Shown one piece after another: positions 9,465 to 49,397 of a DNA stretch of 63,245 nt. A program made the position numbers and the translations under genes. A model generated the notes under the pieces. The model was not told the origin of the DNA, ran no database searches, and saw nothing but the letters and a program-made list of their open reading frames with translations. How positions within the stretch are numbered: the first letter of the stretch is position 1; each line of letters opens with the position of its first letter. This DNA is from Nitrospiraceae bacterium (GTDB taxonomy: Bacteria; Nitrospirota; Thermodesulfovibrionia; UBA6902): the NCBI GenBank assembly GCA_003599425.1, contig QZKC01000094.1:1-63245 (forward strand). Reading direction: 5' to 3'.

Positions 9465-9479
9465 AAAAGCGATATATAC

Positions 9480-10400
9480 ATGAAAAGAAAAGCGCTTATT
9501 GTTGGAGGGACCGGATTTGTAGGCCTTCACTTACAACATTGCTTACATGACAGATATAGTATTATGGCAACAGGCCGAAATGAAGATATCAGGGATGCTG
9601 CGATGATCAAAAACTTAGTAAGGAAAGCAACCCCTGATATTGTGATCAATTTGGCAGCGATCACCACGGTACGAGAGTCTTTTGAACGTCAATATGATAA
9701 TTATAATATTGGACTGTTCGGAACGTTAAACTTATTGCTGGCACTAAAAGATATAGCTTTTCAGGGACGAATGCTTCAGGTCGGTTCGAGTGAAGTATAC
9801 GGCTTTCCAGCTCCGGATCAGTTGCCCATCTCCGAATCAGAACCTTTGCGGCCTATGAGCCCTTATGCTGTAAATAAAGTTGCTATTGAAGCTCTTTGCT
9901 ATCAGTGGAGCCAGACAGAACAGTTTGAAATAGTAACGACAAGATCTTTCACGCATATAGGGCCGGGACAGAGCGATAGATTTGCAATATCAAATTTTGC
10001 CAGGCAGATAGCTGAAATAAAACAAATGAACATAGAGCCTGTTATTCATGTTGGCGATTTAAGCGCAACAAGAGACTTCACTGATGTCCGTGATATTGTC
10101 AGTGCATATGACCTGCTGCTTCAGAAAGGCAGGAATGGAGACATATATAATGTCTGTTCAAATCAGGAAGTATCTACACAGTGGATGCTGGAGAAACTAA
10201 TAGAACTATCAGGAGTAAAAGTAAAAATTATTCAGGACACAACGCGTTTAAGGACCTCTGAGCAGAGAAGAGTTTGTGGGAATAACAGAAAGCTGGTTAG
10301 AGATACCGGTTGGCAACAAATAATTTCACTCGAATCATCTCTTGCTGATATTCTGTCTTACTGGGAAAAGAACTTTGCTACATATAACGTGGAGTCTTAG
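9480..10400 (+). CDS. NAD-dependent epimerase/reductase, GDP-4-keto-6-deoxy-mannose reductase (Rmd)-like
   Basis: GGTGFVG, SSEVYG, PYAVNK, GDLSATRDFTDVRD. Confidence 0.8.
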   Translation: MKRKALIVGGTGFVGLHLQHCLHDRYSIMATGRNEDIRDAAMIKNLVRKATPDIVINLAAITTVRESFERQYDNYNIGLFGTLNLLLALKDIAFQGRMLQVGSSEVYGFPAPDQLPISESEPLRPMSPYAVNKVAIEALCYQWSQTEQFEIVTTRSFTHIGPGQSDRFAISNFARQIAEIKQMNIEPVIHVGDLSATRDFTDVRDIVSAYDLLLQKGRNGDIYNVCSNQEVSTQWMLEKLIELSGVKVKIIQDTTRLRTSEQRRVCGNNRKLVRDTGWQQIISLESSLADILSYWEKNFATYNVES

Positions 10401-34460: not shown

Positions 34461-35372
34461 ATGAAAAAGGCAGCAGTTATAACTATACTTTTCACAATGA
34501 TACCTGCTCTCTTCCTCTCTGCACAGGAAAACGGGAAAAATGGCGGGGCTGTCACTGAGAAAACAAATGTCCATTATACCGGCAAGTACTGTACCGAATG
34601 CCACGAAAAGCCCCCTATAAAGGGCGGAGATAAGCTTCTAAATTATAATGGAGATTATACTCAGCTTTGTAAATGTCACGGGTATACTCCCGGAACATAT
34701 ATACATCCCGTTGATGTTGTTCCTTCTGAAGAAAAACATGCAAAGATACCAAAAGAATTCACCCTTGTCGACGGAAAGGTTTCCTGTCCCACCTGCCATG
34801 ATATGTATCTGCAATGCCAGAGAAACGATGAGAACAAGGTTCTTAATAAGTTCTTCCTGCGAGGCGCCCCTTATGTAAGCCGTACCACGCTCTGCTTCAG
34901 ATGTCACGATGAAAAAAAATATACACGGCTCGATCCGCATAATCAGTTGACGAAGACTGGGATTATTATTGTCGAAAAGTGCCTGTACTGCCATGTTGAG
35001 AAACCTGACGAAAAAAAATCAACTTTCAAAGAGGTCAAGCTTATAGGGAACCTTGAAGCACTCTGTGGCAGATGTCATTTTAAACAGACCCAGTTCCATC
35101 CCATAAATGCAAACCATCTGCGCAAACCATCTGAAAAAATCCTGGAAACATTGAGAGAGACCGAAAAACGTCTGGGGGTAGTGCTCCCGCTAAGTCAGGA
35201 GGGAAAGATCACATGCCCAACCTGTCATAATCCTCATGAACGAGGAGTAATACCAGGAGAAAGAGATGCTGCGCAGGGAGCAGGGGAAAAGTACCGTCTT
35301 CGTCTTGGGGGGCAGCACCTGCAGATCTGTTTTGCTTGCCATAAAGAGAAATTTGATGAGTATCAAAAATGA
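34461..35372 (+). CDS. Periplasmic multiheme cytochrome c (7 CxxCH plus 1 CxCH)
   Basis: CTECH, CPTCH, CFRCH, CLYCH, CGRCH, CPTCH, CFACH plus CKCH; signal peptide. Confidence 0.9.
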   Translation: MKKAAVITILFTMIPALFLSAQENGKNGGAVTEKTNVHYTGKYCTECHEKPPIKGGDKLLNYNGDYTQLCKCHGYTPGTYIHPVDVVPSEEKHAKIPKEFTLVDGKVSCPTCHDMYLQCQRNDENKVLNKFFLRGAPYVSRTTLCFRCHDEKKYTRLDPHNQLTKTGIIIVEKCLYCHVEKPDEKKSTFKEVKLIGNLEALCGRCHFKQTQFHPINANHLRKPSEKILETLRETEKRLGVVLPLSQEGKITCPTCHNPHERGVIPGERDAAQGAGEKYRLRLGGQHLQICFACHKEKFDEYQK

Positions 35373-35387
35373 GAAAAGCAGATAATG

Positions 35388-36881
35388 TTATAATTTCCCC
35401 CGGGGATAATCTCTGAACATTTGCCTGATCGTGCTGTTGCTGCGCAACTTTTCAGTCAATTCGATTAGCCCTCCTTGATCGGCGTATTCAATAGCAGTGT
35501 AGATAGCACTTGCTGCCCTCTCATTTACTACTTCTGCGTAAGGGTTTCTTTCAAGACCGCTCACAGCAGTTTTCAGTGCCGTTTCTGCCTCCTGCTTACG
35601 CCCTGATTTAAGGTAGGTCTCAAAGATCAGGAAGTCTGTCGGGAATGAGCCGTTCAGCATTACGTCCTTCTTATAATATTCAAGCGCCTCTGCCGGCCTG
35701 CCGAGATCGCGCAGGCAATGGGCGAAGTGGTAGAGACCGTTTCTCATGTCCGGGACAGCGGAAAATCCTGCCCTGAAAAACCGTTCAGCCTCCCCGCACT
35801 GACCTTTCACAAAATAAAGCGATCCAAGGTGCGATAACCCGGTACAGTAAAGTTTATCGGCATTGCAGGCTGCCATTGCTGCATCGAATGCCTTTTCAGA
35901 TTCTCCCTTAAGCATATAAGCATACGCTTTATACAATAGAAGCGATGGTTCTTTGAATTGGGGCGTATACAGTTGAATGAGCCTCAATATTTCATCAGGA
36001 TTGACACCGCGGTATTCATTATCTATTTGTTGCAAGAGAGCAAGTACTTCAGGGGGCGGTCCTTTAAGCAAGTCCGGCTTCTCAAGGATCATTGCCGCGG
36101 TATTACCAACCCACCGGAGATGCGGCTGGAGATAATCACCATTCACGGAATAACTGATAGCGGCACCCTGAATGTGGTAATGTTTTTCTGAAAGAGCATC
36201 AAACATCTCCTTCAATGCGGTAAGGTAGATGGCACGATGTTCATCAGAATACACAGGGAAAAAGTCAGCGTCAATGCTTAACAACACAGGGCTATTAATA
36301 TCGGGAAGCGACTCCAGTCCACAGACAGTAAATGGGATTCCATTCACCGAGCCATGAAACCGGTTATTCTCAAACAAAAAAGTCTGGATATCTTTATCAC
36401 TGAACATGACGGATCGTAAAAACCGTCGCAACTGTTCCTCAGTATCCCTTTGAGAAAAGAAATTATTAGGAATGACCCAATACACTTCCTTGAACATACT
36501 CAATCGCGCACCAGCGTAAATCCAGTTCCCTATATGGTACAGTCCATCGTCAGCGACCGAATCAGCATCAGCAAAACCTTTCCAGTCTCTTCGTCTGTAT
36601 AGATCTTCAAGCAAGGCCAGCTTTTCTTCTGGAATGCTACGGATATCATCGTGCGTATCAATATTGATAAGGACTGCATTATGTATCCCCTGTTCAGCCC
36701 ACTGAGCAAAGGCCTGACTATGATCTTCAACAACCAATGTATTCCTGACAGGTTCCCTGCCAAGAACAGGCGGTGGCTTTTCTTTCTCGCAACTGAAGAG
36801 ACCGAGCAGGATAAAAAAAAGAAAGGACAATTTGAGTCTCCAGAAAAATCCAAACACATTTAGATAAATTAGTTTGTTCAT
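35388..36881 (-). CDS. Putative lipoprotein: UPF0489-like (arginase/deacetylase-like) domain plus TPR repeats
   Basis: Lipobox LFSC; INIDTHDD, IGNWI...YWVIP, LLSIDADFF; C-terminal TPR-like helices. Confidence 0.6.
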   Translation of the reverse strand: MNKLIYLNVFGFFWRLKLSFLFFILLGLFSCEKEKPPPVLGREPVRNTLVVEDHSQAFAQWAEQGIHNAVLINIDTHDDIRSIPEEKLALLEDLYRRRDWKGFADADSVADDGLYHIGNWIYAGARLSMFKEVYWVIPNNFFSQRDTEEQLRRFLRSVMFSDKDIQTFLFENNRFHGSVNGIPFTVCGLESLPDINSPVLLSIDADFFPVYSDEHRAIYLTALKEMFDALSEKHYHIQGAAISYSVNGDYLQPHLRWVGNTAAMILEKPDLLKGPPPEVLALLQQIDNEYRGVNPDEILRLIQLYTPQFKEPSLLLYKAYAYMLKGESEKAFDAAMAACNADKLYCTGLSHLGSLYFVKGQCGEAERFFRAGFSAVPDMRNGLYHFAHCLRDLGRPAEALEYYKKDVMLNGSFPTDFLIFETYLKSGRKQEAETALKTAVSGLERNPYAEVVNERAASAIYTAIEYADQGGLIELTEKLRSNSTIRQMFRDYPRGKL

Positions 36882-36993: not shown

Positions 36994-37025
36994 AAAAAAA
37001 AAAGGGCGACCCATTGGGCCGCCTC
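36994..37025 (-). terminator. Rho-independent terminator after the 20-aa peptide gene
   Basis: Minus strand AGGCGGCCC-AAT-GGGTCGCCC followed by T10. Confidence 0.88.
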
Positions 37026-37048: not shown

Positions 37049-37111
37049 TCAGCAGGGATGCACGTTTGCAGTACCCACTACCTTCGGTTTTACATAGGTT
37101 AACTTTTTCAT
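37049..37111 (-). CDS. 20-aa peptide MKKLTYVKPKVVGTANVHPC (absent from ORF track)
   Basis: AAAGGAGGT Shine-Dalgarno 6 nt before ATG; TGA stop; terminator about 24 nt downstream. Confidence 0.8.
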   Translation of the reverse strand: MKKLTYVKPKVVGTANVHPC

Positions 37112-37159
37112 TTCTGTACCTCCTTTCGGTTCTGTAGACTTTTTTAGTATGTCAACAAA

Positions 37160-37921
37160 TTATTGCTGTTTTTTATCTTCCTTCGTCCTGTCCCACCGGG
37201 AGCTGGGGTTCTCCTTGACGCGGATATCAATCCCCCGGGTAACCTCCCCCATTTGAACTGTGGCTTTTTCAACAGGTTTACTCGCGCCCACAGCTCTTAC
37301 GTAATATTCGCCATCCTCATCAACACGTACGATATATTTGCCGTCAAAGCCTGTTCTCCTGTCAGATATGTAGACAAGATTCTGTATCTGCGGATCGGTG
37401 GATGCATAGACAAGCACCCCTTCAGCAGGCGTCCCGTCCTTAAGGAGCACCTTGCCTTCAATAGCAGTTTTACCGGCAGGAAGCCATTCCTCTTTAAATG
37501 GCACTGCCCCTGAGATTACGCCAATATTTGTTGCTCCCTCTGATGTAACCATATAGGTCTTTATCTCGCGGCTGTCCCACGCAGGCCAGGTCGGGTCTCC
37601 CGCGTCGATAGGAGGTCCGGGGTTCTCACCTGAAAGCTTCTTTGTCGCCAGCATATAGTACTCCCCTGCCGGGATGATTTCGCTGAAGCTTCCGTCCGCC
37701 CCAGTGCGGCTAAAGAAATCGCACATCCTCCAGTACTCACGCCTGAAAGGCGAGCCCGATTCAACCCTGTAAAGGCAGACCTGTGCCTCGGATAATGCAT
37801 CACCGTTAATAGTCAGGATCGTCCCCTTTATCATGCCAAATTCTGTTACCTGAGCAAAGGCAGGGTTCAGCGCCAAAATCAGGCAAAGTCCAGAGAACAG
37901 TGTGATAATCAGTTTTCTCAT
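37160..37921 (-). CDS. Secreted protein with two carboxypeptidase-regulatory-like beta-sandwich domains
   Basis: Signal peptide (AFA-Q); repeated I.G...G.P..G..V...T..DG.[FY]......G.YY pattern. Confidence 0.7.
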   Translation of the reverse strand: MRKLIITLFSGLCLILALNPAFAQVTEFGMIKGTILTINGDALSEAQVCLYRVESGSPFRREYWRMCDFFSRTGADGSFSEIIPAGEYYMLATKKLSGENPGPPIDAGDPTWPAWDSREIKTYMVTSEGATNIGVISGAVPFKEEWLPAGKTAIEGKVLLKDGTPAEGVLVYASTDPQIQNLVYISDRRTGFDGKYIVRVDEDGEYYVRAVGASKPVEKATVQMGEVTRGIDIRVKENPSSRWDRTKEDKKQQ

Positions 37922-38007: not shown

Positions 38008-41000
38008 CTACCACTGCGTTACGTTGTTCCACTTCTGTTCTGTCCAACTGTTCCCGGGCTGACTATCATGGCATGTGCGGTACGCAGGCGGAGTCGATTT
38101 GCTTGTCCCGACATTGCCGAAGAAGTAAGCGCCTCCCGTATTTTGATTCCACACAAACGATTCATCCTTCTCGGTAAACCCGCCACCACCGGCAGGAAAA
38201 CGGCCAGCACCTGCGCCTTTGTCAGCTACTCTTGAGTATTGCGTTCCGTTTCCTCCTGAAGCAACGCGCCCCCTGTGGTTGTCGTTCAGGCAGTTAGTCA
38301 CCATCATCCTCGGCAAGGCGGAATTATGGGGCGAATGGCACTTTGAACATGTAAACGCATGCCGTGTATTATTTGCATTTCCGCCAGTGCTCTGTGCCCA
38401 ACCCTTGACCGTGTCATGGATCCTGTCATAGGTCTTCCAGGTGTTGTTACTGTCAGGATCTATCTGCGACTTTGGATGGCAGTTGAGGCAGAGGCCCGCA
38501 AAATCATTGATGGTCTCAGTGATCTTCGCAGCGGCATTGTAATCCCATTTCACAATATCATTGTATTTGCCGTTCATCGTATCAGCAGTAAAGGTGTTCT
38601 GGTCTATGTTGTATCCCGGACGGCTGCCGATGTACTGGCGGGCTGCCCTTCTGCCGCCGCCCCGGCTGTCATTTGTGGTTGAGGGCGCAGCGTCTTCTCT
38701 GTAGGGAGAGGTCATCCAGGTGCCCTTGAGCATGGGCACAGCATAATCCTGATTTAGTGTGGGACTTACCCCATGCGGGTCATGGCAGGGTGTACAGAGA
38801 CCATTAATGGTTTTGCTGGGGGTTGTGTTCAAAGCTGATGAAGCAGAGAGATGACCGCCCTTATTTGTTCCTGCTCCTGCTTTATAGGTATATCTCTGCT
38901 GAGGACCCGGTGTCCCCAGCCCAAAATACGGGGTGTCGAGATATCCCCGTATCGGCTGTGAAGCCCCATATGTCCCCTGATATCCCCAAGGAGTTGTACC
39001 TGCCTCTACTGTCTCATGGCAGTCAAAGCAGAGAGCTGCCCCTGCATTGTATTGGTTCTTGTTACCGGTAGACCCACCAGCCGCAGGCTTGTAGGTCATT
39101 GCATAACCGCCTTTACCTGCTATCGTGCTCTTCAGGTTACCTCCCTTAGTTGCATCACTTGTATAACTTGTTGTCGTGCCTTCTACATCCGAACCATGTG
39201 AGTTGTGGCAATCAAAACAGGCAACGTTGGTATTCCCGCTCGTATCAGGCCATGTGTCATTCAGATCATAGCCCTGTTGATTTATATACGCAACTCCATG
39301 GGAAGAGTGTGCCTTTGTCATGGCAGCTTTTCCATTCGTATTTGCACCGCTGTACTTGCCCCACTGAGTTGAGGTCTCAGGGGTGTAACGCGCATTGATG
39401 CTCGTTCCCTTGGTCCAGGTGCCCCCATTCGCGAGGCAATCCTCTCTTTTCTTATCATAGGTCGGATTGCTGCAGGTCCCATCCCATGCGTATTCATTGG
39501 GCGTATTGCCATCTCCAAATGGCTGTGTGCTGTTGTTCTCATTATTGTGGCAACTGATACAGTGCTGGTTCATCTCAAGGATCTGTGTCCTCGATCCATC
39601 AGTAGTATATCTGACGGCTGTTACCCCAACGCTATAGCTCGCAGGCCTTGTCCCGAACCCGTAGATAACCAGGTCGACCGCTGAACCGGGACTGAGCGAT
39701 CCTCCATGATATGTGGTATTCACACTACCATCAGCATTTGCTTCCCAGTGGCACTGATAGCAGTGCGTCTCATTCACTGCAACCCCCTGCACATGATGTG
39801 AGGACGAGTTGAACTGTCCCATCACAGCAACCCTGTCTCCCATGGCAATTGCATGGCAGATCGTGCATGCCCCATCAGGCCTGAACCCAACTTCATGTGG
39901 ATGGCAGAGCGTGCAGTCATACATGGCAGGTTCAGACTCATGTAGCCGTGCCGTGGGTGAGTTAAACCGGTGATACAACGTTTTGGTGTGGCAGACCTCG
40001 CATATTTTCTGTGATGTTGTATGCACGATAGTATCATCACCGAATCCTCCAGCCCCTGTTTGACTAAATACAACTTCTGCTCCCGGGAAACCTCCTGCAG
40101 GAGCTGTGACAGATTCTTTTATCCTCTTTATATTACTTGTGTTGATCGCGTGGCACGTGGCACAGGTGAAGCCGCCATACTCTCCCGATGGGGTCCCCCA
40201 CGTCCCGCCCCAGTATTTATTGCCGGGAAACCTCAGGCCATTATGCAACATCGAATCATCGCTCCAGACAGCCGGGACCACATGATGAATTTCCTGGACG
40301 TTACTATTGCTGCCTGTATAACCGTCACTGTCCTGATAGGTGACCCGCACATGATATGCTTTCCCATTCGTCAATCCCGTGATCTGATACATGAAAGGAC
40401 TCATGCTATGCGTGACTACTGCTGAACCGAGACTGAAATCAACCTGGTCATAGCCCCACTCAATCAGAAGGGTATTGTCCTTGTCTGAATCTTCAGTATA
40501 CCGGGCAGTAACGTAAATGGACTGGTCTGCCGGGCTTGCAGCAGCAATTCCTGGAGCTGTGCGGGGTTCATAAACCGGTGTGTGAATATTGAGCTGGTTT
40601 GAATCTGCGCTCTCACACGGTTCATTGGTGCTGTAACCCCGGACAGTATAGGTGTAGTCCGTGTCCGGAGAAACGGTCGTGTCCGTATAGGTCCCTCTGC
40701 ATGGTATTACGTCTGCAAGGAATGAACCATTCCGGTAAATCTTATAGTATTCATTGTTCGTGCATTCAAAAGACCACATGAGAGTAACTTCATAGGACTC
40801 AAGGAATGAATACGAGAGGTCATCCGTTGTATTGGCGTAACAGGCCCTCCAGGTAAAGTCTCTTGCTGTTGTTGTTATGATGTTGCCGCAGTCAGGGTCT
40901 GTCCCACGGACATCAAGCGTATATGTAACGCCATCTGTATAGTTGCCACATTTTGAGCCACCGTTAATTGATGCAGGAATAGTACTGTTTGATGTCCAGT

Positions 41001-42819
41001 CAATACAGACATCTGAACCGCCGACGTGATATTCAATATACGCAGAATACCAGTAATTGCTGAAAGAACCGCTGTCTGCCGGCCATGTTGCAGGATATGC
41101 CACTGTATCATCTGTGGACACACTTACTGAATTCCAGCGGCCTCTTCCTGTCTGGAAGTCACTGCCTGAGGCGCTGCTGCTATAACGAACGTCAAAGCCT
41201 GTCCCACCGCCGTTGCTCTTATAGGCAATCCATACCGGCTGGCCTGAAGGTATAGTGATATCAGGTCCTGTATAGGTAATGGTCAGCCACTGGTTTGTAG
41301 CGCTTCCGCTTGTTGTCCCAAAGTCATAGAGAAGTGTGGCTCCCGACGGCCCCGCTGTCAGGCTTCCTCCAGTGTATACGGCAAGCCTGACCTGATCTCC
41401 ATGATTAGCACCCACATAAATTGATACAGATTTTAAATGCATGTTCGAAGATGAGGGTGCGTTGCCGCTCATTACTCTCGCAAAGTTCGCTTTTGTCGAA
41501 GATACCCCCACATTGGTCTTACCCCAGTTATAAGTCGTTGCTGTACCGGGAGTAGATATCATATACTCAATCGATTCTACGTCGCCTGTTTTGCTGAACA
41601 TGGTGCTTGCATTATAAGGATCCCCTTTTGCTATCTGGCCTGCAGGGATCGTTATTGTGGAAGGGTCAGGGTCAGTACAGGTCGCACCTGTTTCATATGT
41701 CAGATAATACGAATACCAGTAATTGCTAAAGGTACCGCTATCTGAAGGCCACGTAGCGGGGAATGCAACAGACTCATCTGTTGATACCTGCCCGCCGGAC
41801 TGAAACCGGCCGTTTGCTGTCTGAAAATCGCCGGCATTTGCACTGCTGGAAGAATACTGGACAGCAAAACCTGAATCATTCCCTTTGACCGCTACCCAGA
41901 GAGGAGCGTTCTTTAAAATGAGCGGACCTGCAGGGCAGGTGAGCGTAAGGAACTGGTTGGTCCCGCTGCCGCTTGTAGCGCCAGCATCACAGAGAAGCGT
42001 TGCCCCGTCAGGCCCGGATGACAGGTCACCACCCTGATATACAGCAACCCTGACCTGGCTTGAGTGACTGTTCCCTACATATACGGAGACGCTCTTGAGC
42101 TTCATCCCGTCAACATTTGGAGACGTGCCTCCCATGACCCGCACAAAATTCACATTTGTGTTCGTGCCGTTTGCCGCAGTGCGTCCCCAGTTGGTCTGTA
42201 CAGGAGGAGTATAGTCAACCTCAGCATAAAGCTGGGTAGCACGCATAGCAGTGGAATTTGTGTGGTCGATGATAGCCACCAGGCTGTCAATCTCTGACCA
42301 TGTCCATGCAGCGCCTGTCTGGGGGTTGGTATTATATGTGCTTCCTGTAAAAAGGGCATATGTTGACGATGACGAAGTCTGACCACTGCTAAAGTAGCTG
42401 GACCCGTTGGTCTTTACCCCTATAGTAAATGTTGAACTCCCGCTTGCAGCGTCTCTTCTTGCGCGGGTCTTGATCGTAACAGAGTTGATGGCTCCCGTCT
42501 CTGTAGTATGGTTATCAAGCTCAAGATAATAATAATTAGCAGTTCCTGAGGAACTTCCATAGGAAGTATCGCTGTCGTTCGAATCAAGGGCAGTGGCAGC
42601 CGTTCCGCCTGAGTATGTAACATTATCACCAGTGGAAGAACCGGACGGATAGAGTGTCAGGATGGTTGCCCAGGACCCCAATGCATTCAATAACAGAAGC
42701 GCCACCGTGAGGGCAAATGACAAGAATATATTATTCATGAGTAATCCTCGTATAAAGGTGCCAAACTCGTTCTTACTATCGGCAGTTGTCTTAATATTCT
42801 TTATCTCTCTCTTCATCAT
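38008..42819 (-). CDS. Large extracellular multiheme cytochrome c (11 CxxCH) with N-terminal beta-rich repeats and FN3-like domains
   Basis: CATCH, CEVCH, CTLCH, CTICH, CYQCH, CISCH, CFDCH x2, CTPCH, CLNCH, CSKCH, all in the C-terminal half; alternative start ATG 42738 with GAGGA RBS. Confidence 0.88.
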   Translation of the reverse strand: MMKREIKNIKTTADSKNEFGTFIRGLLMNNIFLSFALTVALLLLNALGSWATILTLYPSGSSTGDNVTYSGGTAATALDSNDSDTSYGSSSGTANYYYLELDNHTTETGAINSVTIKTRARRDAASGSSTFTIGVKTNGSSYFSSGQTSSSSTYALFTGSTYNTNPQTGAAWTWSEIDSLVAIIDHTNSTAMRATQLYAEVDYTPPVQTNWGRTAANGTNTNVNFVRVMGGTSPNVDGMKLKSVSVYVGNSHSSQVRVAVYQGGDLSSGPDGATLLCDAGATSGSGTNQFLTLTCPAGPLILKNAPLWVAVKGNDSGFAVQYSSSSANAGDFQTANGRFQSGGQVSTDESVAFPATWPSDSGTFSNYWYSYYLTYETGATCTDPDPSTITIPAGQIAKGDPYNASTMFSKTGDVESIEYMISTPGTATTYNWGKTNVGVSSTKANFARVMSGNAPSSSNMHLKSVSIYVGANHGDQVRLAVYTGGSLTAGPSGATLLYDFGTTSGSATNQWLTITYTGPDITIPSGQPVWIAYKSNGGGTGFDVRYSSSASGSDFQTGRGRWNSVSVSTDDTVAYPATWPADSGSFSNYWYSAYIEYHVGGSDVCIDWTSNSTIPASINGGSKCGNYTDGVTYTLDVRGTDPDCGNIITTTARDFTWRACYANTTDDLSYSFLESYEVTLMWSFECTNNEYYKIYRNGSFLADVIPCRGTYTDTTVSPDTDYTYTVRGYSTNEPCESADSNQLNIHTPVYEPRTAPGIAAASPADQSIYVTARYTEDSDKDNTLLIEWGYDQVDFSLGSAVVTHSMSPFMYQITGLTNGKAYHVRVTYQDSDGYTGSNSNVQEIHHVVPAVWSDDSMLHNGLRFPGNKYWGGTWGTPSGEYGGFTCATCHAINTSNIKRIKESVTAPAGGFPGAEVVFSQTGAGGFGDDTIVHTTSQKICEVCHTKTLYHRFNSPTARLHESEPAMYDCTLCHPHEVGFRPDGACTICHAIAMGDRVAVMGQFNSSSHHVQGVAVNETHCYQCHWEANADGSVNTTYHGGSLSPGSAVDLVIYGFGTRPASYSVGVTAVRYTTDGSRTQILEMNQHCISCHNNENNSTQPFGDGNTPNEYAWDGTCSNPTYDKKREDCLANGGTWTKGTSINARYTPETSTQWGKYSGANTNGKAAMTKAHSSHGVAYINQQGYDLNDTWPDTSGNTNVACFDCHNSHGSDVEGTTTSYTSDATKGGNLKSTIAGKGGYAMTYKPAAGGSTGNKNQYNAGAALCFDCHETVEAGTTPWGYQGTYGASQPIRGYLDTPYFGLGTPGPQQRYTYKAGAGTNKGGHLSASSALNTTPSKTINGLCTPCHDPHGVSPTLNQDYAVPMLKGTWMTSPYREDAAPSTTNDSRGGGRRAARQYIGSRPGYNIDQNTFTADTMNGKYNDIVKWDYNAAAKITETINDFAGLCLNCHPKSQIDPDSNNTWKTYDRIHDTVKGWAQSTGGNANNTRHAFTCSKCHSPHNSALPRMMVTNCLNDNHRGRVASGGNGTQYSRVADKGAGAGRFPAGGGGFTEKDESFVWNQNTGGAYFFGNVGTSKSTPPAYRTCHDSQPGNSWTEQKWNNVTQW

Positions 42820-42829
42820 TCAATTTACC

Positions 42830-45800
42830 TCATTCATCTGTCCGTGGCACATCTTGATGGCAAGCTGCGCATGTAGAGATATTCGTATTCCAGGTAATAT
42901 CAAACCCGTTATGGCAAGATACGTTTGAACAGGTGCCGTTACTGTAGGTTGCCTGACTGGCCAGTGTAGCCTTGGAGCTGTCATATGAAGATGCGCCCTG
43001 CTTGTAGCCGTTGTTCCTCTGCCAATAGGTGTTCAGCTCAGTCACGGTCGTTATGTCGTCCCTGATCTGCGCTTTTGACCTGATGATAACATTGGCAAAA
43101 TTGATATCAGCAGTACCGGTCACATGACTCGTCGCAGACGGATCAATGACCATTGTACCTACAGGAGTAGCTGCATGACATACGGCACAGACCGTGTTCT
43201 TGTCATTTGCAGCCATCTTCACTACATTGTTATGACAGAGATTACAGTTGATCGTTGTCGATGTGTTAGGATCGCCATGTCCTCCGCCTGAGGCTGCGCC
43301 GGCGGGCAGCAGACCATTCGTACCGTTATATATGGTGTCATAATGAATAGCGATCCTGCCATGTGTCATATGTGAGCTTGTATCTGGCATGTTGCCGTGG
43401 CAGTCATCGCACTTATCGCCTACAAAGGTCCCACCATACCAGTTGGGTGATGACTTGTACTGATAGGTAGATCCGTCAAAGTAGCCGCTGCTGTGACAGT
43501 ATACGCTTGAGCAGGTAACGCTGACACGCTGTGTCTGGGTATAGCTCTGAACAGTATTATTCTTTCCCTTCATGGTGCCTGCCGCTCCCGTGTCATTGGG
43601 GTCAAGGTTCAGGTTGATCACGCCATTCATGTGTGTTGCTGAAGACTGCGGATGGCAGTAGCCACATCCCTTGTTCGGCACGCCGCCAAGATTGCTGTAT
43701 GAGTACCAGTTCGGCAGCTTTCCATAATCACTTGTTGAAACCTTTCCAACATACGGGGTCTGTACATGTCTGGCATGAGGTGTGTCAGCGATATTTCCCG
43801 GTGCCGGGCCGCCTTTGGATGAATGACAGTCGTTGCAGTTGTCTGAAATATTGACCGTTCCATTTATATGAGAGCTTGGATCAGTAAAACCTGTACCGGA
43901 AGCATTTACTCCGGCATTATGACAAATAATACAGTCAGTAGCCCCTTTGCCAGAATGTACTGCCAGTGATGATGGAGGATAACCATGACACCGCGAGCAG
44001 TCATTGGCTGCATTACCCGTAAGATAGTTTGTATTATTCCAGATCGGAGTCCTGTCTGCCCCGTTTGTAGTGCCCTTTGGCATCGCTCCGCCATGACAGT
44101 AAACATTTGAACACTGACCGCCTGAATAACTGGGAGTTGCACTGTTGCTTGAAGCCAGCGCGCCAAAGATGAGCTCTGCTGTTCCTGGAGTGGCATCATT
44201 TATATGCCCCGCAGCAGATACAATGGCAGGAACGATATGGCACTCGCTACATGCCACATTGCTGGATATTGTACTCTGCAGGTGTGCCCTATGCGCCCCG
44301 ACCTGTGCGTCAGTTGCCGCTGAATCTCCCGCAGTATCTGTAGGAGGCGCCTGGGTATAGGCAGGGGCCGGAGACGCGGTTGGAGTGCCATGGCACTTTG
44401 TGCACCCATCTATCCCGGTAAAATCCGTTCCCCACGTCGGGGAGGAATTGCCGTGACATGCTGCCGCAGAACATGTTCCATAACCATTTCCGGGCGTTCC
44501 GCCTTTTGTATATGAATTTGCTACGTCTATCGATTTATTTACATGATTTGAGTAGTTATACGATGATGCATCATTTGCTGCTCCTGTATGGCAATCACTG
44601 CAGCCATTGACCCCGGTTGTACCAAGGTGCGCAGCATGACTGCCACTCGTTAATCCTGATGCCTCTGTAACCTTATGACAGGTTCCACATGCTGCGCTTG
44701 CTGAATTTCCCCATGTAGGAATTGCATAGGCCGGAGTTGCTGAGTTTCCGTCCGTTGTTGACTGTCCTGTACTGTGGCAATATGCGGTTGTGCAGGTCGT
44801 ATATGCACTCGCCTTTGTCTTGTTTGACGGATATCCAAGGTCGCCTGCCGTTACGTCATATACATCGATATTACTATCAAGATGCTGTTCAGGTGGAGTA
44901 GTACCACGAACGGCACTGTCATGGCAATCTCCACACACCGCTGTGCTGTACAACGTTGTCGTCACATGCTTTGTATGGCTTCCGGTACCGGGAACATCCG
45001 CGTGGCATTCTGAACATCCGCCTCCGGGAGTGCCCCATGTAGGAGTTGTTTTCAGATTCCCTGTTGCGTCATCATGACATGATGCAGTTGAGCAGGTTCC
45101 ATAGCCGTTTCCGGGTGTGCCACCTGCTGTATAAGAGTTTGCTACATCTATTAATGCATTAATATGGTTTGCTGAATTATATGAAGAGGCATTATTTGCC
45201 GCTCCAGTATGACAGTCCCCACATCCGTTTACTCCGGTCGTTCCAAGATGTGCTGCATGGCTGCCACTGGTCAAGCCTGTAACATTATGACATGTCCCGC
45301 AGACGCCGCTTGCAGGGGTATCCCATAACGGTGACGCATAAGTCGGAGTAGATGAACTCCCGCTTGAAGTAGACTGTCCTGTGCTGTGGCAATAAATATT
45401 AGAACACGTTTTGTTATTATTGTTCGAGACAAATGTCACAGGAGCAGTTGTCGTAGCGTTATACGTTACCCCAGACTGACCATTATATGTCCCTCCTTGA
45501 TATGACCCGTTGAATAAATAGAATCCTAAGGTAACAGAAAGGCCATTATTATGGGTTGAACCTGTGCCAACACTGTTATAATGACAGGTTGCACAATCGT
45601 ACCCCTTTGTGTTGACATGTACATTGTGGGCACCGGCAGTTGAAGAACCTGTTACTCCGGGATTATTCACCAAACCATTTGGTCCCCCGGTAGCAGTATT
45701 GACTGTGGGGGGATATCCATGGCAGATATCGCAGGCAATCTTGAAGCCCTTCGTATGTTTATGACAATATGTGCAGTCCGTACCTGCATTATGGGCATGG

Positions 45801-46543
45801 TTCCCTGTAACATCATTCTTGTGATACGTGGACTGGGTATGACATACCTCGCAGACCCCATCATATGTTGCATCGCCGTCCGCAAATGAGTTTGTACCCG
45901 TTGAATTGAAAAAACGAACTGTTTTAATTCCACTGTTAGGCGTGGTGATTTTTTCTCTAATGAGACTCCCATAAACAATGATGAACGTATTCCCCGGGCT
46001 GACCTTTGTCAGATTGATAGTTCCCTCAACCGTGAGCGTGTCGATGTTATTTCCGGTAATTTTATAATTGTAGGAGTTTTGTGCAATGTTGGGAACAAGG
46101 ATCAAGCCCTGATACTGGTTATCTGTCCATCCAGCCCCTGTCTTTGTCAGTGACGTTGCATTCACTGAAGATACTACCCCCTGATAGATGTAACTGGCGC
46201 TTCCATAGGTCCTGAACTGCTTGTGTCCGTGCGGGTTATGGCAAACACGGCACTCAACCGTCCAGTCTCCGTAACTATTATCCGTCTGATAACTGGAATG
46301 GGTATTTACCCCCATCGCCCCCCAATGACAACTCCAGCACAGTTGGTTGTATTCAGTATCATCTATTCCATTCTGACCGTACGTCAGTCCCTCTATCATA
46401 AGCGAAGGTTGTGAACCCCACACATAATGGCAACTCTCACAATTGATCCCTTCTGTGCCGTTATGGGGAAAATCAAGCGCATACCCATGAGCTGAAAAAA
46501 AGCAAAGCGCCATAACTAATAGTATTCTGATAATTGTATTCAT
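42830..46543 (-). CDS. CxxxxCH/CxxCH-domain multiheme cytochrome c (23 CxxCH plus 7 CX4CH)
   Basis: Counted by hand; the repeating C-x4-CH...W...CxxCH unit is the Geobacter-type TIGR01904-like pattern; signal peptide. Confidence 0.92.
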   Translation of the reverse strand: MNTIIRILLVMALCFFSAHGYALDFPHNGTEGINCESCHYVWGSQPSLMIEGLTYGQNGIDDTEYNQLCWSCHWGAMGVNTHSSYQTDNSYGDWTVECRVCHNPHGHKQFRTYGSASYIYQGVVSSVNATSLTKTGAGWTDNQYQGLILVPNIAQNSYNYKITGNNIDTLTVEGTINLTKVSPGNTFIIVYGSLIREKITTPNSGIKTVRFFNSTGTNSFADGDATYDGVCEVCHTQSTYHKNDVTGNHAHNAGTDCTYCHKHTKGFKIACDICHGYPPTVNTATGGPNGLVNNPGVTGSSTAGAHNVHVNTKGYDCATCHYNSVGTGSTHNNGLSVTLGFYLFNGSYQGGTYNGQSGVTYNATTTAPVTFVSNNNNKTCSNIYCHSTGQSTSSGSSSTPTYASPLWDTPASGVCGTCHNVTGLTSGSHAAHLGTTGVNGCGDCHTGAANNASSYNSANHINALIDVANSYTAGGTPGNGYGTCSTASCHDDATGNLKTTPTWGTPGGGCSECHADVPGTGSHTKHVTTTLYSTAVCGDCHDSAVRGTTPPEQHLDSNIDVYDVTAGDLGYPSNKTKASAYTTCTTAYCHSTGQSTTDGNSATPAYAIPTWGNSASAACGTCHKVTEASGLTSGSHAAHLGTTGVNGCSDCHTGAANDASSYNYSNHVNKSIDVANSYTKGGTPGNGYGTCSAAACHGNSSPTWGTDFTGIDGCTKCHGTPTASPAPAYTQAPPTDTAGDSAATDAQVGAHRAHLQSTISSNVACSECHIVPAIVSAAGHINDATPGTAELIFGALASSNSATPSYSGGQCSNVYCHGGAMPKGTTNGADRTPIWNNTNYLTGNAANDCSRCHGYPPSSLAVHSGKGATDCIICHNAGVNASGTGFTDPSSHINGTVNISDNCNDCHSSKGGPAPGNIADTPHARHVQTPYVGKVSTSDYGKLPNWYSYSNLGGVPNKGCGYCHPQSSATHMNGVINLNLDPNDTGAAGTMKGKNNTVQSYTQTQRVSVTCSSVYCHSSGYFDGSTYQYKSSPNWYGGTFVGDKCDDCHGNMPDTSSHMTHGRIAIHYDTIYNGTNGLLPAGAASGGGHGDPNTSTTINCNLCHNNVVKMAANDKNTVCAVCHAATPVGTMVIDPSATSHVTGTADINFANVIIRSKAQIRDDITTVTELNTYWQRNNGYKQGASSYDSSKATLASQATYSNGTCSNVSCHNGFDITWNTNISTCAACHQDVPRTDE

Positions 46544-49323
46544 TCCCCTATCCCAGGATTTCCAACCGCAACATTTACTCCATATTTTGAATTGAAAACC
46601 GTGAAGCTGCTTTTCTGTATTCCATAGGCATCGAATATTTTCACGACTGCCTCATTATTCATACCTGAACCCATGCCTGCGATTATCTCTGCTACTCCAT
46701 CTCCGTCCAGATCTCCGCTTGCCAGGTTAGCGCCATAATTTCCAGCTACCCCGGCATTGAATATGGATATAGTTTCAGCATCACCGTTTACAACCTGTAT
46801 ATCGAAACTCTTTTTATAACGGGGGCCGGTTCCGATGATGATCTCATCAAAATAATCTCCATTTATATCTGCGCTTGCCAGGCTGTTACTATTTACATAT
46901 CGTGATTCAACAGGAAATTCCTTAACAAGTGAAACACTCCACTGACCAACGCCCTTTTCCGTATTTACTTTCCATATCCGGATCCAGCCTTTAATACTTT
47001 TATTACCTTTTCCGGTTCCTGACATTGTGACCAGTTCACTCATTTCATCACAATCAATATCTGTGGTAGCAACACGAACTCCGTTATTCGTTTCAAAAGC
47101 AAGCAGGCTGATCCCACTGTCTACAAGTTTGTCCTGGGCAGTGTCATATGCAAATATTTTCACCTCAGCAGGATTATTGACCCCAGATCCCACTACTACC
47201 TCTGAGTGTCCGTCTCTGTCAAAATCACAACTGGTGACATTGGCTCCATATTTATAATCAAACGCTGTTGTTTTCAGTTGGCTCAGTTCATGACCTTTTC
47301 GATCGAAGATTCTTATTTCCGCAGGATTTGAAGGACCAGGTCCAGGAGCAGTGATGATCTCATCGTAGCCGTCACAGTTAACATCACCGGTTGCGACATT
47401 GACTCCATAGGGATACTGATGGGCAATGAATTCTACTCCGGTGGATGTTCCATTTGGGTTGTATCCCTTCACAAGTCCGTTATCTTCAAGTCCGGGGCCT
47501 TTGCCTACAATTATCTGCTTGAAATATCCACTCTGATTATTTGACGCTTCCTTTATGTATTCGCCGGTAAAACTGATGCTACTGTCTTTTTCCAGTGTCA
47601 GGCCCTGAGAAACCGGCTGCTCATATCCGGCAACATCTCCGAAAACTACGACGTATGTGCCGGCAGGTGCATCATTGACCTGCCAGTTCTTGCCGCTTCC
47701 AGAATATGAAGCAGTACCGTTGATGATGAATGTGGCCGCTTTTATATTTGTTAAGACATTGATCGCTCCCTTTGCCTCTGTGACACTCAGACTCACTGAT
47801 ACAGCCCTTGTATCTGACGTTGTGCCTTGTCCTTCTATTGTTATAGTTCCGGTATATGTTCCCTGCGTCATGCTTGTTATATCAGCACTCACTGAAATAC
47901 TATCCTGTGCTGTTCCAGCATATTTGTTTAAAGTAATCCACGCTCTGTCTGAAGAAGCTGTCCAGTTGAGTATGCCATCACCTGCATTGATTACAGAGAT
48001 ACTCTGTGATGACGGCTGAGCACCATTCAATGAAGTAAACTCCAAAGATACCGGCGTTACAGAAAGTACAGGTGTCGGTGGACGAACTACATTTAAAGTG
48101 ATATCAATTATTTCTGTGCCTCCTGATTCTGCGTTTATCACAACAGTCCCCTCGTATATTCCTTCTGACAATCCTTCAAGATTCACCCCAACCTGCATGG
48201 CATGGCTTTCTGACTGTGCAATGGAGCCAGCACTTTCGGAGAGAGTTATCCAACTGTCCTGAGCAGATGCTGACCAGCTCAGAACGCTGTTCCCTGTGTT
48301 TTTTATTTCCACGACCTTTGAATCAGGATTATTACCATTCGTAAATCCATCAAATGAAAGGACTGAAGGTGTCACTTCCATTTGTGTATATGCATCCAGT
48401 CCATACACTTCCACGCTTTTGGTATTTAGTGACGCTATAAACAGCCTGTTGCTTTTACCCCTAACCAGTCCCAAAGGGGTCCTTAGAGGATTTTCTGTTC
48501 CATAGATCGAACCGATATACAGGCCGTTTTCATCAAAGACACGAACTACCTGCTGATATGCATCGCTGACATATATTCTTCCAACTTCATCCTTGATAAC
48601 ACCGACCGGACGGCTTAGTTTCCCTGCTCCAATTCCATACTCTCCAAAACTCCTTTTGTAGATGCCGTTCAGATCAAACACCTGTACTCTTGCACCATGG
48701 CTCATTTCCGTTCCTGATTGCCTTAACTGACGGTCGACAACAATGATCTCTCCTGAGGTTTCATGGATTGATATTGAGGTGGGAAAAGTAAATTGGCCAT
48801 TGCTACTTCCACTCCCTCCAAAAGAATATTTGAAAGAGCCATCAGAATTAAATACCTTTATCAGATCCTGGTCGCTGTCCACCACATAAATTTCGCCTGC
48901 TTTACTTGTCGCTATCGCTATCGGTTGTTTGAATTCCCCATCTCCTGATCCAAGTTTGAATAACTTATGCAAATTGCTGTCATAAGCTTCTACGTTCCCA
49001 TTTCCTTGATTACCCACAAAAATTCTCCCGCTTTCGTCAACCGCAACGCCAAGTGGTACATTCAGTCCATAAAGCAACTTCAACAGGTGGCCGCTCTGGC
49101 TGTAAATGAGCAATCTGTTCTCTATTGATTCAGTTACATAGAGGTTTTCATATATATCGAGTGCTGCAGCAGTGGGGGCCGTGAGATTTTCCGTAACCGG
49201 CTGAAGTCTTGAATAGTCAGGCATAACAGCAGCCTGTAATGACACTGTCCATAAGAACATAAAACAAAGAAAAAAATACAGCGAGATAAAATCACATCCT
49301 ATATTCGCTCTACTCTTTTTCAT
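46540..49323 (-). CDS. NHL beta-propeller plus two BACON/Ig-like domains, PEGA-like domain and FG-GAP repeats
   Basis: GSGDGEFKQPIAIA and GQFTFPTSI repeats; VTPSVLSF...N.G...LSWSAS..WITL twice; VATGDVNCDGYDEII repeats; GGAG RBS before ATG 49323 (track start 49362). Confidence 0.85.
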   Translation of the reverse strand: MKKSRANIGCDFISLYFFLCFMFLWTVSLQAAVMPDYSRLQPVTENLTAPTAAALDIYENLYVTESIENRLLIYSQSGHLLKLLYGLNVPLGVAVDESGRIFVGNQGNGNVEAYDSNLHKLFKLGSGDGEFKQPIAIATSKAGEIYVVDSDQDLIKVFNSDGSFKYSFGGSGSSNGQFTFPTSISIHETSGEIIVVDRQLRQSGTEMSHGARVQVFDLNGIYKRSFGEYGIGAGKLSRPVGVIKDEVGRIYVSDAYQQVVRVFDENGLYIGSIYGTENPLRTPLGLVRGKSNRLFIASLNTKSVEVYGLDAYTQMEVTPSVLSFDGFTNGNNPDSKVVEIKNTGNSVLSWSASAQDSWITLSESAGSIAQSESHAMQVGVNLEGLSEGIYEGTVVINAESGGTEIIDITLNVVRPPTPVLSVTPVSLEFTSLNGAQPSSQSISVINAGDGILNWTASSDRAWITLNKYAGTAQDSISVSADITSMTQGTYTGTITIEGQGTTSDTRAVSVSLSVTEAKGAINVLTNIKAATFIINGTASYSGSGKNWQVNDAPAGTYVVVFGDVAGYEQPVSQGLTLEKDSSISFTGEYIKEASNNQSGYFKQIIVGKGPGLEDNGLVKGYNPNGTSTGVEFIAHQYPYGVNVATGDVNCDGYDEIITAPGPGPSNPAEIRIFDRKGHELSQLKTTAFDYKYGANVTSCDFDRDGHSEVVVGSGVNNPAEVKIFAYDTAQDKLVDSGISLLAFETNNGVRVATTDIDCDEMSELVTMSGTGKGNKSIKGWIRIWKVNTEKGVGQWSVSLVKEFPVESRYVNSNSLASADINGDYFDEIIIGTGPRYKKSFDIQVVNGDAETISIFNAGVAGNYGANLASGDLDGDGVAEIIAGMGSGMNNEAVVKIFDAYGIQKSSFTVFNSKYGVNVAVGNPGIGE

Positions 49324-49380
49324 CTTTATCTCCATATATATGTTCAGTAATTTATCGCTCATTGTCCTATTTTTTTACAA

Positions 49381-49397
49381 TGCAACTACCGTACCTG
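49381..49397 (-). promoter_or_regulatory. Putative sigma54 (-24/-12) promoter
   Basis: Minus strand CAGGTACGGTAGTTGCA vs consensus YTGGCACGRNNNTTGCW (2 mismatches; GG-N10-GC spacing exact), in a 200-bp intergenic gap. Confidence 0.6.

Follow-up and report, generated by a model that had tools for sequence, protein, structure and literature searches.

What is encoded by the very short last gene of a long cytochrome operon, and what becomes of its product? The question is raised by a stretch of 63,245 nucleotides from a Nitrospiraceae bacterium (GenBank assembly GCA_003599425.1, contig QZKC01000094.1), referred to here at its full length as the window, in which a run of co-directional genes ends with an open reading frame (ORF) of only 20 codons. 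A preliminary description, made from the sequence alone, proposed that this ORF encodes the precursor of a peptide made by ribosomes and modified after translation (RiPP), perhaps the substrate of GeoRSP, a cassette known from Geobacter that combines a PqqD protein with a radical S-adenosylmethionine (rSAM) enzyme carrying a SPASM domain. GeoRSP is a peptide-modifying system of bacteria that respire metals, and we know of no substrate that has been assigned to it. Comparison of genomes from two phyla shows that the ORF belongs to a conserved family of peptide genes and that the family is inherited together with GeoRSP, and the peptide is probably the precursor on which GeoRSP acts.

A Conserved Family of Peptide Genes

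The source genome (G000; 2.9 Mb in 106 contigs, 89.6% complete) contains three copies of the peptide gene, one in the window and two on another contig, C27. The copy at C27:23692-23751 encodes a peptide identical to that of the window; the two coding sequences differ at eight nucleotides, all of them synonymous, with no amino-acid change, and their flanks cannot be aligned except for the GGAGG box. The third copy (C27:31482-31541) encodes MKKFTYVKPKLVGTANVHPC. The preliminary description presupposed an ORF that is conserved among relatives, and homologues are indeed present in 22 of 101 relatives from the Nitrospirota, in 49 of 151 sampled Geobacterales and at 40 loci in a scan of 185,579 species represented by one genome each, among them the cultured Geobacter hydrogenophilus, Pelotalea chapellei, Geobacter sp. 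AOG1 and Geomobilimonas luticola. A 23rd match among the relatives (E = 0.97) is not a member of the family.

The family set, drawn from Nitrospirota and Geobacterales, counts 71 different coding sequences and 80 different peptides of 17-23 residues, mostly 19-20. Across the 71 coding sequences the mean pS is 0.775 against a mean pN of 0.194 (pN/pS 0.25), with synonymous sites near saturation, and the codon entropy is 1.48 bits at position 3 versus 0.51 bits at positions 1 and 2. With positions counted from the C-terminus, all 80 peptides have the same residues at -15 (Tyr), -12 (Pro), -8 (Gly), -3 (His), -2 (Pro) and -1 (Cys), Val or Ile occupies positions -14, -10, -9 and -4, Lys or Arg occupies -11, and a short basic N-terminus of variable length precedes them. 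Translation starts at ATG (104 copies), GTG (27) or TTG (4), and the stop codon (TGA in 85, TAA in 44, TAG in 6) always follows the Cys codon directly. A GGAGG-type Shine-Dalgarno sequence lies at the same spacing in nearly all of the 39 listed copies, a start preceded by such a sequence was recovered in the family copies to which starts were assigned, and a hairpin with a T-run is found 3' of most members.

The signals that the preliminary description reported for the window copy, a Shine-Dalgarno sequence with a 6-nt spacer and a strong terminator, were both located at the gene (Table 1). The terminator hairpin, GGCGGCCCAATGGGTCGCC (37023-37005), lies 25 nt past the peptide stop and is followed by T10 at 37003-36994; RNA folding of the peptide region gives this hairpin in both the minimum free energy and the centroid structure. 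The ORF in the window is a real protein-coding gene under strong selection on its protein sequence, and a chance ORF is excluded. At the nucleotide level, the letters GCATCCCTGCTGATGC across the stop codon are common to the window (37049-37060) and to loci L002, L003, L005-L007, L027 and L030. They could form a 5-bp hairpin, GCATC...GATGC; other family members differ there, and the shared letters may reflect merely recent common ancestry.

The family shows how a widespread gene can escape annotation; its genes fall under the size limits of gene callers. Searched against Pfam and NCBIfam (18,950 NCBIfam models), the peptide gave no match at E <= 10, and an Rfam search of the peptide region found no family at the gathering score, the two weak matches having E values of 0.11 and 0.31. 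Exact-match look-up of ten family sequences among 15 billion collected proteins gave only two, both labelled 'hypothetical protein', and the peptide of the window was absent. The two are GSU2897, which also occurs in G. metallireducens, and GSU3618/KN400_3512 of G. sulfurreducens. In genome G137, a 2803-aa ORF with 27 CXXCH motifs has GSU2897 directly on its 3' side, and a 1046-aa ORF with 23 CXXCH motifs has on its 3' side GSU3618, which in turn is 5' of a NosD-like gene. By locus tag, the cytochromes beside the two peptide genes are omcN (GSU2898) and omcO (GSU2912) (PMC13194489). No published account of GSU2897, GSU3618 or GeoRSP was found among the open-access papers searched. Genome G137 also carries a third, degenerate peptide-like ORF (L110:5355-5468, near chromosome position 2,359,358), which ends in ...APKVVGSAAVHPC, lacks the Tyr-x-x-Pro part and is probably a decayed copy.

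Co-inheritance of the Peptide with GeoRSP

The cassette invoked in the preliminary description exists by name in NCBIfam, as the three models TIGR04302, TIGR04303 and TIGR04304, and the search of the source genome that it suggested finds the complete trio on contig C27. All three proteins score above the curated cut-offs (Table 1), and the genes share their strand and gene array with the two C27 copies of the peptide gene, which are 16-24 kb upstream. A profile search places the TIGR04303 match at C27:6347-7315 on the minus strand (535.6 bits). The rSAM enzyme has the motif C21-x3-C25-x2-C28 and eight C-terminal cysteines, and its SPASM-only paralogue lacks CX3CX2C. Directly upstream of the PqqD gene, the minus-strand segment C27:8000-11335 (L105) encodes a 112-aa cupin-like protein, a 623-aa permease resembling ArsP/SO_0444 (a Cu/Zn efflux family) and a putative selenium transporter of the YedE family (387.6 bits, above the cut-off). 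These neighbours are a hint at export of a product or at a link with chalcogens or metals.

Among the 101 relatives, the TIGR04303 cut-off is reached in 19, and one further genome (G042) adds two fragments at contig ends. Peptide and GeoRSP occur together in 19 relatives, the peptide alone in three, GeoRSP alone in one and neither in 78 (Fisher p = 1.8e-16). The corresponding numbers for the 151 Geobacterales are 47, two, four and 98 (p = 8e-32). Both p-values overstate independence, because the genomes are related. The distribution is, however, patchy within genera, a pattern repeated in the two phyla; genus g1, for instance, has four genomes with both and seven with neither. In 24 further peptide-bearing genomes from the species-wide scan, the GeoRSP rSAM enzyme scores over the cut-off in 21, and another scores 397.6 bits. 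In the four Geobacterales that appear to have GeoRSP only, the contigs with the cassette are 6.9-11.8 kb long and end before the expected position of the peptide gene; that of G171 opens with precisely the gene before which the upstream peptide gene normally stands. Inspection of the gaps between the rSAM and SPASM genes of G055, G061, G037 and G036, and of the surroundings of the G055 cassette, revealed no peptide.

The physical arrangement points in the same direction. There is one GeoRSP cassette per genome versus one to eight peptide genes, and the rSAM gene and the nearest peptide gene typically share a contig and are 6-18 kb apart. In G064 the cassette is compact: the PqqD gene (8552-8854) is followed by the rSAM gene (8863-9849) and, after 92 nt, by the peptide gene (9942-10004), beyond which come unrelated housekeeping genes. 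The co-occurrence with maturase genes that the preliminary description had anticipated is almost one-to-one in two phyla, with direct adjacency in one genome. These observations show that the peptide family and GeoRSP, with a single cassette in each genome, are inherited together and usually lie within one gene array.

A separate arrangement is seen in a deltaproteobacterial metagenome-assembled genome (MAG) from groundwater (L070:812-3985), where three tandem peptide genes, encoding an intact 20-mer, a 19-mer with a GTG start and an apparently degenerate copy, stand directly before a gene whose rSAM/SPASM product reaches only 98 bits on the GeoRSP model. Elsewhere the same genome encodes a GeoRSP-like rSAM enzyme of 397.6 bits. 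The gene orders of G064 and of this MAG both resemble those of classical RiPP clusters.

Proposed Maturation of the Peptide

Taken together with the composition of the peptide, the comparative evidence makes it probable that the ORF in the window is the translated gene for a 20-residue GeoRSP precursor peptide, and the interpretation put forward in the preliminary description is supported at the level of sequence comparison. That description had noted that YVKPKV fits the type of leader motif bound by PqqD proteins or RiPP recognition elements (RRE). The fit holds: YxxPxL is a conserved motif of lasso leaders and is recognised by PqqD-like B1 proteins (PMC10368454), and the Tyr and Pro of the peptide are invariant in 80 of 80 family members.

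The proposed division into leader, spacer and core is given in Table 1. In this scheme the basic N-terminal half, KK-x-x-Y-V-x-P-K/R-V/I-V/I-G, would be the leader and would be bound as a β-strand by the GeoRSP PqqD/RRE protein. The rSAM/SPASM enzyme would then alter the C-terminal V-H-P-C, with the chemistry taking place at the carboxylate or the thiol of the C-terminal Cys, as a decarboxylation and/or a cross-link. AhbD and MftC are oxidative decarboxylation enzymes, the latter with the C-terminal residue of a peptide as its target. By hidden Markov model score, the GeoRSP rSAM enzyme stands closest, among characterised enzymes, to AhbD/NirJ2 (about 185 bits), followed by MftC (153 bits) and PqqE (135 bits). 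Since Cys is always last and the enzyme is kin to AhbD/NirJ and MftC, chemistry at the C-terminal Cys is plausible, though unproven.

The presence of several peptide genes for one cassette could be accommodated in the same scheme. The extra copies, that of the window among them, would be highly expressed last cistrons behind genes for giant cytochromes or for a protein of about 265 residues (described below), each with its own consensus Shine-Dalgarno sequence and terminator, and would supply precursor in step with the adjacent envelope proteins. The product may serve those envelope proteins as a small cofactor, as a metal (Cu/Ni/Se) ligand or as a partner of the NosD-like and β-sandwich proteins.

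Comparison with Known Peptide Maturation Systems

The system resembles pyrroloquinoline quinone (PQQ) biosynthesis in having a precursor of about 20 residues that is often present in multiple copies, a separate PqqD-type chaperone, an rSAM/SPASM enzyme and an aromatic-x-x-Pro leader. However, the GeoRSP PqqD protein scores 40.8 bits on the PQQ PqqD model and the rSAM enzyme 135 bits on PqqE, both under the family cut-offs. The peptide matches no PqqA model, has no Glu and lacks the Glu-x-x-x-Tyr pair, and its invariant V-H-P-C stands at the extreme C-terminus.

The likeness to mycofactocin lies in the modified residues, which are last in a short peptide and have to be C-terminal (as is proposed here), and in the combination of a PqqD-like chaperone (MftB in mycofactocin) with an rSAM/SPASM enzyme. 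On the other hand, the rSAM enzyme scores 153 bits on MftC against a cut-off of 265, the C-terminus is VHPC rather than the GVY of MftA, no homologues of MftD, MftE or MftF were seen in the array, and the genomic context consists of secreted cytochromes and β-helix proteins rather than dehydrogenases. Because the model scores are below the cut-offs and the motifs differ, GeoRSP and the peptide belong to neither PQQ nor mycofactocin.

With lasso peptides the shared feature is the leader. The peptide motif MKK-x-x-Y-x-x-P-x-[VIL], which in the window reads Y6-V-K-P9-K-V11, is essentially the lasso leader motif (PMC10368454), and the GeoRSP PqqD protein has a sub-threshold match (43 bits) to the lasso PqqD model as well as that to the PQQ model. 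The remainder is different: the peptide has neither Thr(-2) nor an acidic acceptor (the window peptide has seven residues after G13, none of them acidic), its core is far too short for a macrolactam ring, for which lasso cores have Gly, Ala, Ser or Cys at the N-terminus and Asp or Glu at position 7-9, and no lasso cyclase or B2 protease is present in the array.

The Conserved Module and the 265-Residue Protein

Gene maps of about 50 loci from both phyla, combined with domain scans, place peptide and GeoRSP in a larger conserved module. It starts with a giant multihaem cytochrome or a giant non-haem protein of 2400-3000 aa, followed by a peptide gene and a gene for a protein of about 680 aa with CarboxypepD_reg and NosD-like β-helix domains. 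The middle part consists of a CarboxypepD_reg protein of about 265 aa, a further peptide gene, a NosD-like β-helix protein of about 850 aa, a CarboxypepD_reg protein of about 240 aa and a protein of about 195 aa. At the end are a ResB-like protein (about 305 aa), a PhnD-like binding protein (about 300 aa), a TPR protein, a protein of about 368 aa, the ArsP/SO_0444-like permease and the PqqD, rSAM/SPASM and SPASM-only genes. Complete arrays (for example L065, L079 and L081) are co-directional and run from peptide, NosD-like and 265-aa genes to the ArsP-like permease, PqqD, rSAM and SPASM genes. The peptide gene stands nearly always directly behind the gene for the giant protein or for the 265-aa protein. 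The catalogued system consists of three enzyme genes only; new here are the candidate substrate and the larger module, which adds NosD-like, 265-aa, ResB-like and PhnD-like binding proteins and the ArsP-like permease.

The 265-aa family of secreted two-domain β-sandwich proteins, the most frequent immediate neighbour of the peptide and a partner that the preliminary description did not mention, has 67 members in 35 loci. A profile built from alignment A2 and applied at E <= 1e-20 picks out, among the Nitrospirota, the 22 genomes that have the peptide and none besides; it also finds the family in 51 Geobacterales genomes, of which 47 carry the peptide, the 265-aa protein and GeoRSP. These three components are thus inherited together as one module. 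The AlphaFold2 model of the family member in the window, of 253 aa (mean pLDDT 85.5), has an N-terminal signal-type helix and two β-sandwich domains. Its matches in the PDB are generic (Gram-positive pilins and CnaB-like domains, TIE protein; TM about 0.25) and include no enzyme-like fold, and a function is not deducible from them.

The giant proteins vary more widely. On C27, a minus-strand gene (C27:23850-31166, also L004:11851-19167) that has peptide copies on both flanks encodes a protein of 2438 aa in which CXXCH occurs 38 times; with six MopE-type 'putative metal-binding' repeats (PF11617, 163.9 bits), the protein is a fusion of copper motif and multihaem regions of unusual size. Next to a peptide subfamily with the sequence MKKIKYVPPRIVG..., in loci L037-L042, L044 and L045, the giant upstream protein has 2300-3046 aa and no CXXCH at all. 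The existence of such proteins implies that the peptide is tied to giant secreted proteins generally and not to cytochromes alone. In some Nitrospirota, the source genome included, genes for the NikR repressor and for Ni/Co uptake of the CbiM/N/Q/O type interrupt the module. On C27 they are inserted in its middle (C27:18000-21800, or L004:6007-9745), between the 265-aa and NosD-like genes, and the same insertion is found in L034, L047 and L068.

Alternative Explanations

Several observations weigh against the assignment of the peptide to GeoRSP. The peptide of the window is not beside any maturase; the window in all its 63,245 nt encodes neither maturase nor RRE, exactly as the preliminary description stated, and its contig is a different one from that of GeoRSP. 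GeoRSP is missing from three Nitrospirota MAGs (G022, G028 and G048) that encode both the peptide and the 265-aa protein, and G055 has GeoRSP with neither of them. No leader peptidase was identified, and the putative core amounts to just 4-7 residues. The source genome has three further PqqD-domain genes (C8:56327-56527, C64:8407-8604 and C51:3519-3689), which point to other RRE-dependent systems in this organism; one of these domains sits within an 819-aa open frame. Finally, in following the distribution of the peptide the 265-aa protein equals or surpasses GeoRSP, with 22 of 22 and no mismatch in Nitrospirota. With a partner that is equally tight, co-occurrence alone cannot separate a GeoRSP substrate from a passenger of the same island.

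A first alternative is that the peptide is an unmodified small protein, such as a chaperone, an assembly factor or a metal-binding His/Cys peptide, which works with the 265-aa protein, the NosD-like proteins or the giant cytochromes, and that GeoRSP merely shares the island and has another target. The identical distribution of the 265-aa family, the adjacency of the two genes in 35 loci and the three genomes without GeoRSP would all follow, as would a copy number that tracks the operons of giant proteins and not the single cassette. The peptide, however, has no signal sequence while its neighbours are exported, and no alternative substrate candidate was seen near the GeoRSP cassette. In the compact cassette of G064, moreover, PqqD, rSAM and peptide genes stand together without envelope genes beside the peptide, and the combination of a leader-like YxxP with an invariant, strictly C-terminal VHPC is typical of rSAM substrates. 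We consider an unmodified protein unlikely.

A regulatory role in cis, in which ribosomes stall at Pro-Cys-stop or at Pro-Pro and thereby tune the terminator and the read-through into downstream genes, appears very improbable. A hairpin terminator does lie some 15-30 nt past almost every copy, with more co-directional genes behind it, and many family members contain Pro-Pro; the subfamily of the window does not, and the predicted fold shows the terminator only, with no antiterminator pairing (z = -1.42) and no match to an RNA family. Amino-acid conservation extends over the full length of the peptide across two phyla while the downstream genes and the terminator sequences vary, and the tight co-occurrence with a peptide maturase cassette would be left unexplained.

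There is an equally slim chance that the peptide is a RiPP precursor modified by a different maturase, one of the other PqqD-containing or rSAM/SPASM systems of the genome. Candidates are available in the three additional PqqD-domain genes on C8, C64 and C51 and in about a dozen other rSAM/SPASM-like genes, and the three peptide copies of L070 precede an rSAM/SPASM gene with just 98 bits on the GeoRSP model. But sub-threshold rSAM/SPASM matches, including a recurring frame of about 800 aa, are present in 101 of 101 relatives, most of which have no peptide; no peptide copy is near the three other PqqD genes; and the genome of L070 also has its GeoRSP-like rSAM enzyme. A methanobactin-type precursor, suggested by a likeness to the MbnA leader (...VIGRAAA), was rejected, as the source genome (89.6% complete) has no MNIO/DUF692 gene and gives no match to the MbnB/MNIO model PF05114.

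Gene Context in the Window

The peptide gene is the end of a co-directional array on the minus strand that runs from 62773 to 37049 (25.7 kb) and includes at least five multihaem cytochrome genes, a peptidyl-prolyl isomerase, a CsgG-like lipoprotein and the 940-aa β-propeller protein; the preliminary description was right to call it the last gene of a cytochrome unit of about 26 kb. It lies 48 nt downstream of the 253-aa gene. The distal part of the array, with the propeller gene, two multihaem cytochrome genes, the 253-aa/265-aa gene and the peptide gene, is found again in L035, L046 and L053. A candidate sigma-54 promoter for this sub-operon (49381-49397, minus strand; AGGTAC-N5-TTGCA) keeps GG and GC and is unconvincing, as it departs from the consensus at two positions and stands a mere 20 nt or so from the ATG. 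It is not recovered when the consensus is scanned for with one mismatch permitted.

Past the peptide terminator, the window (34461-36881) encodes a 303-aa cytochrome with seven CXXCH motifs on the plus strand and a 497-aa TPR protein on the minus strand. A peptide copy in G046 (L055) is flanked by the same cytochrome family (c32) and by a 235-aa SurA-like family (c31), without the TPR family (c33). This flank may be part of the same island as the peptide.

Table 1. Features of the peptide gene, its operon in the window, the proposed parts of the peptide and the GeoRSP genes of the source genome. Coordinates without a contig name are those of the window.
Feature	Position	Strand	Description
Peptide gene, 20 codons	37049..37111	-	ATG, 19 further codons, TGA; product MKKLTYVKPKVVGTANVHPC
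Shine-Dalgarno sequence AAAGGAGGT	37118..37126	-	6-nt spacer ACAGAA, then peptide ATG at 37111
Intrinsic terminator	36994..37023	-	8-bp stem (7 G-C), 3-nt loop, then C + T10
Proposed leader	residues 1-13		Basic N-terminus, Y6-x-x-P9-x-V11-V12-G13
Variable spacer	residues 14-16		
Proposed core	residues 17-20		V17-H18-P19-C20 at free C-terminus
253-aa secreted protein	37160..37921	-	Two β-sandwich domains (CarboxypepD_reg, PF13620); member of the ~265-aa family
1603-aa multihaem cytochrome	38008..42819	-	11 CXXCH; same operon, upstream of peptide gene
1237-aa multihaem cytochrome	42830..46543	-	23 CXXCH
940-aa β-propeller protein	46540..49362	-	NHL/FG-GAP/BACON; first gene of conserved sub-operon
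PqqD-family peptide chaperone (TIGR04302)	C27:7329-7637	-	135.7 bits, cut-off 100
GeoRSP rSAM/SPASM protein (TIGR04303)	C27:6338-7339	-	536 bits, cut-off 400
SPASM-only protein (TIGR04304)	C27:5439-6341	-	309.3 bits, cut-off 300

Implications

It is possible, and can be put forward tentatively, that peptides ending in VHPC are the material from which GeoRSP makes a small cofactor, or a ligand for metals or chalcogens, of a new peptide-derived kind, so that PQQ and mycofactocin would be joined by a third such system. Export of the product would then fall to the adjacent permease, and its users would be the secreted NosD-like and β-sandwich proteins and the giant extracellular multihaem cytochromes of the OmcN and OmcO type. 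With a specific candidate substrate, 17-23 residues long, the named GeoRSP system becomes testable at once, and the model organism G. sulfurreducens carries the candidate. The link to multihaem cytochromes of giant size, to NosD-like proteins and to transporters of metals or selenium suggests a small-molecule component of extracellular electron transfer or of metal handling in the cell envelope. If the cofactor reading is true, extracellular electron transfer in Geobacter and in subsurface Nitrospirota would rely on a ribosomal natural product that has so far gone unseen.

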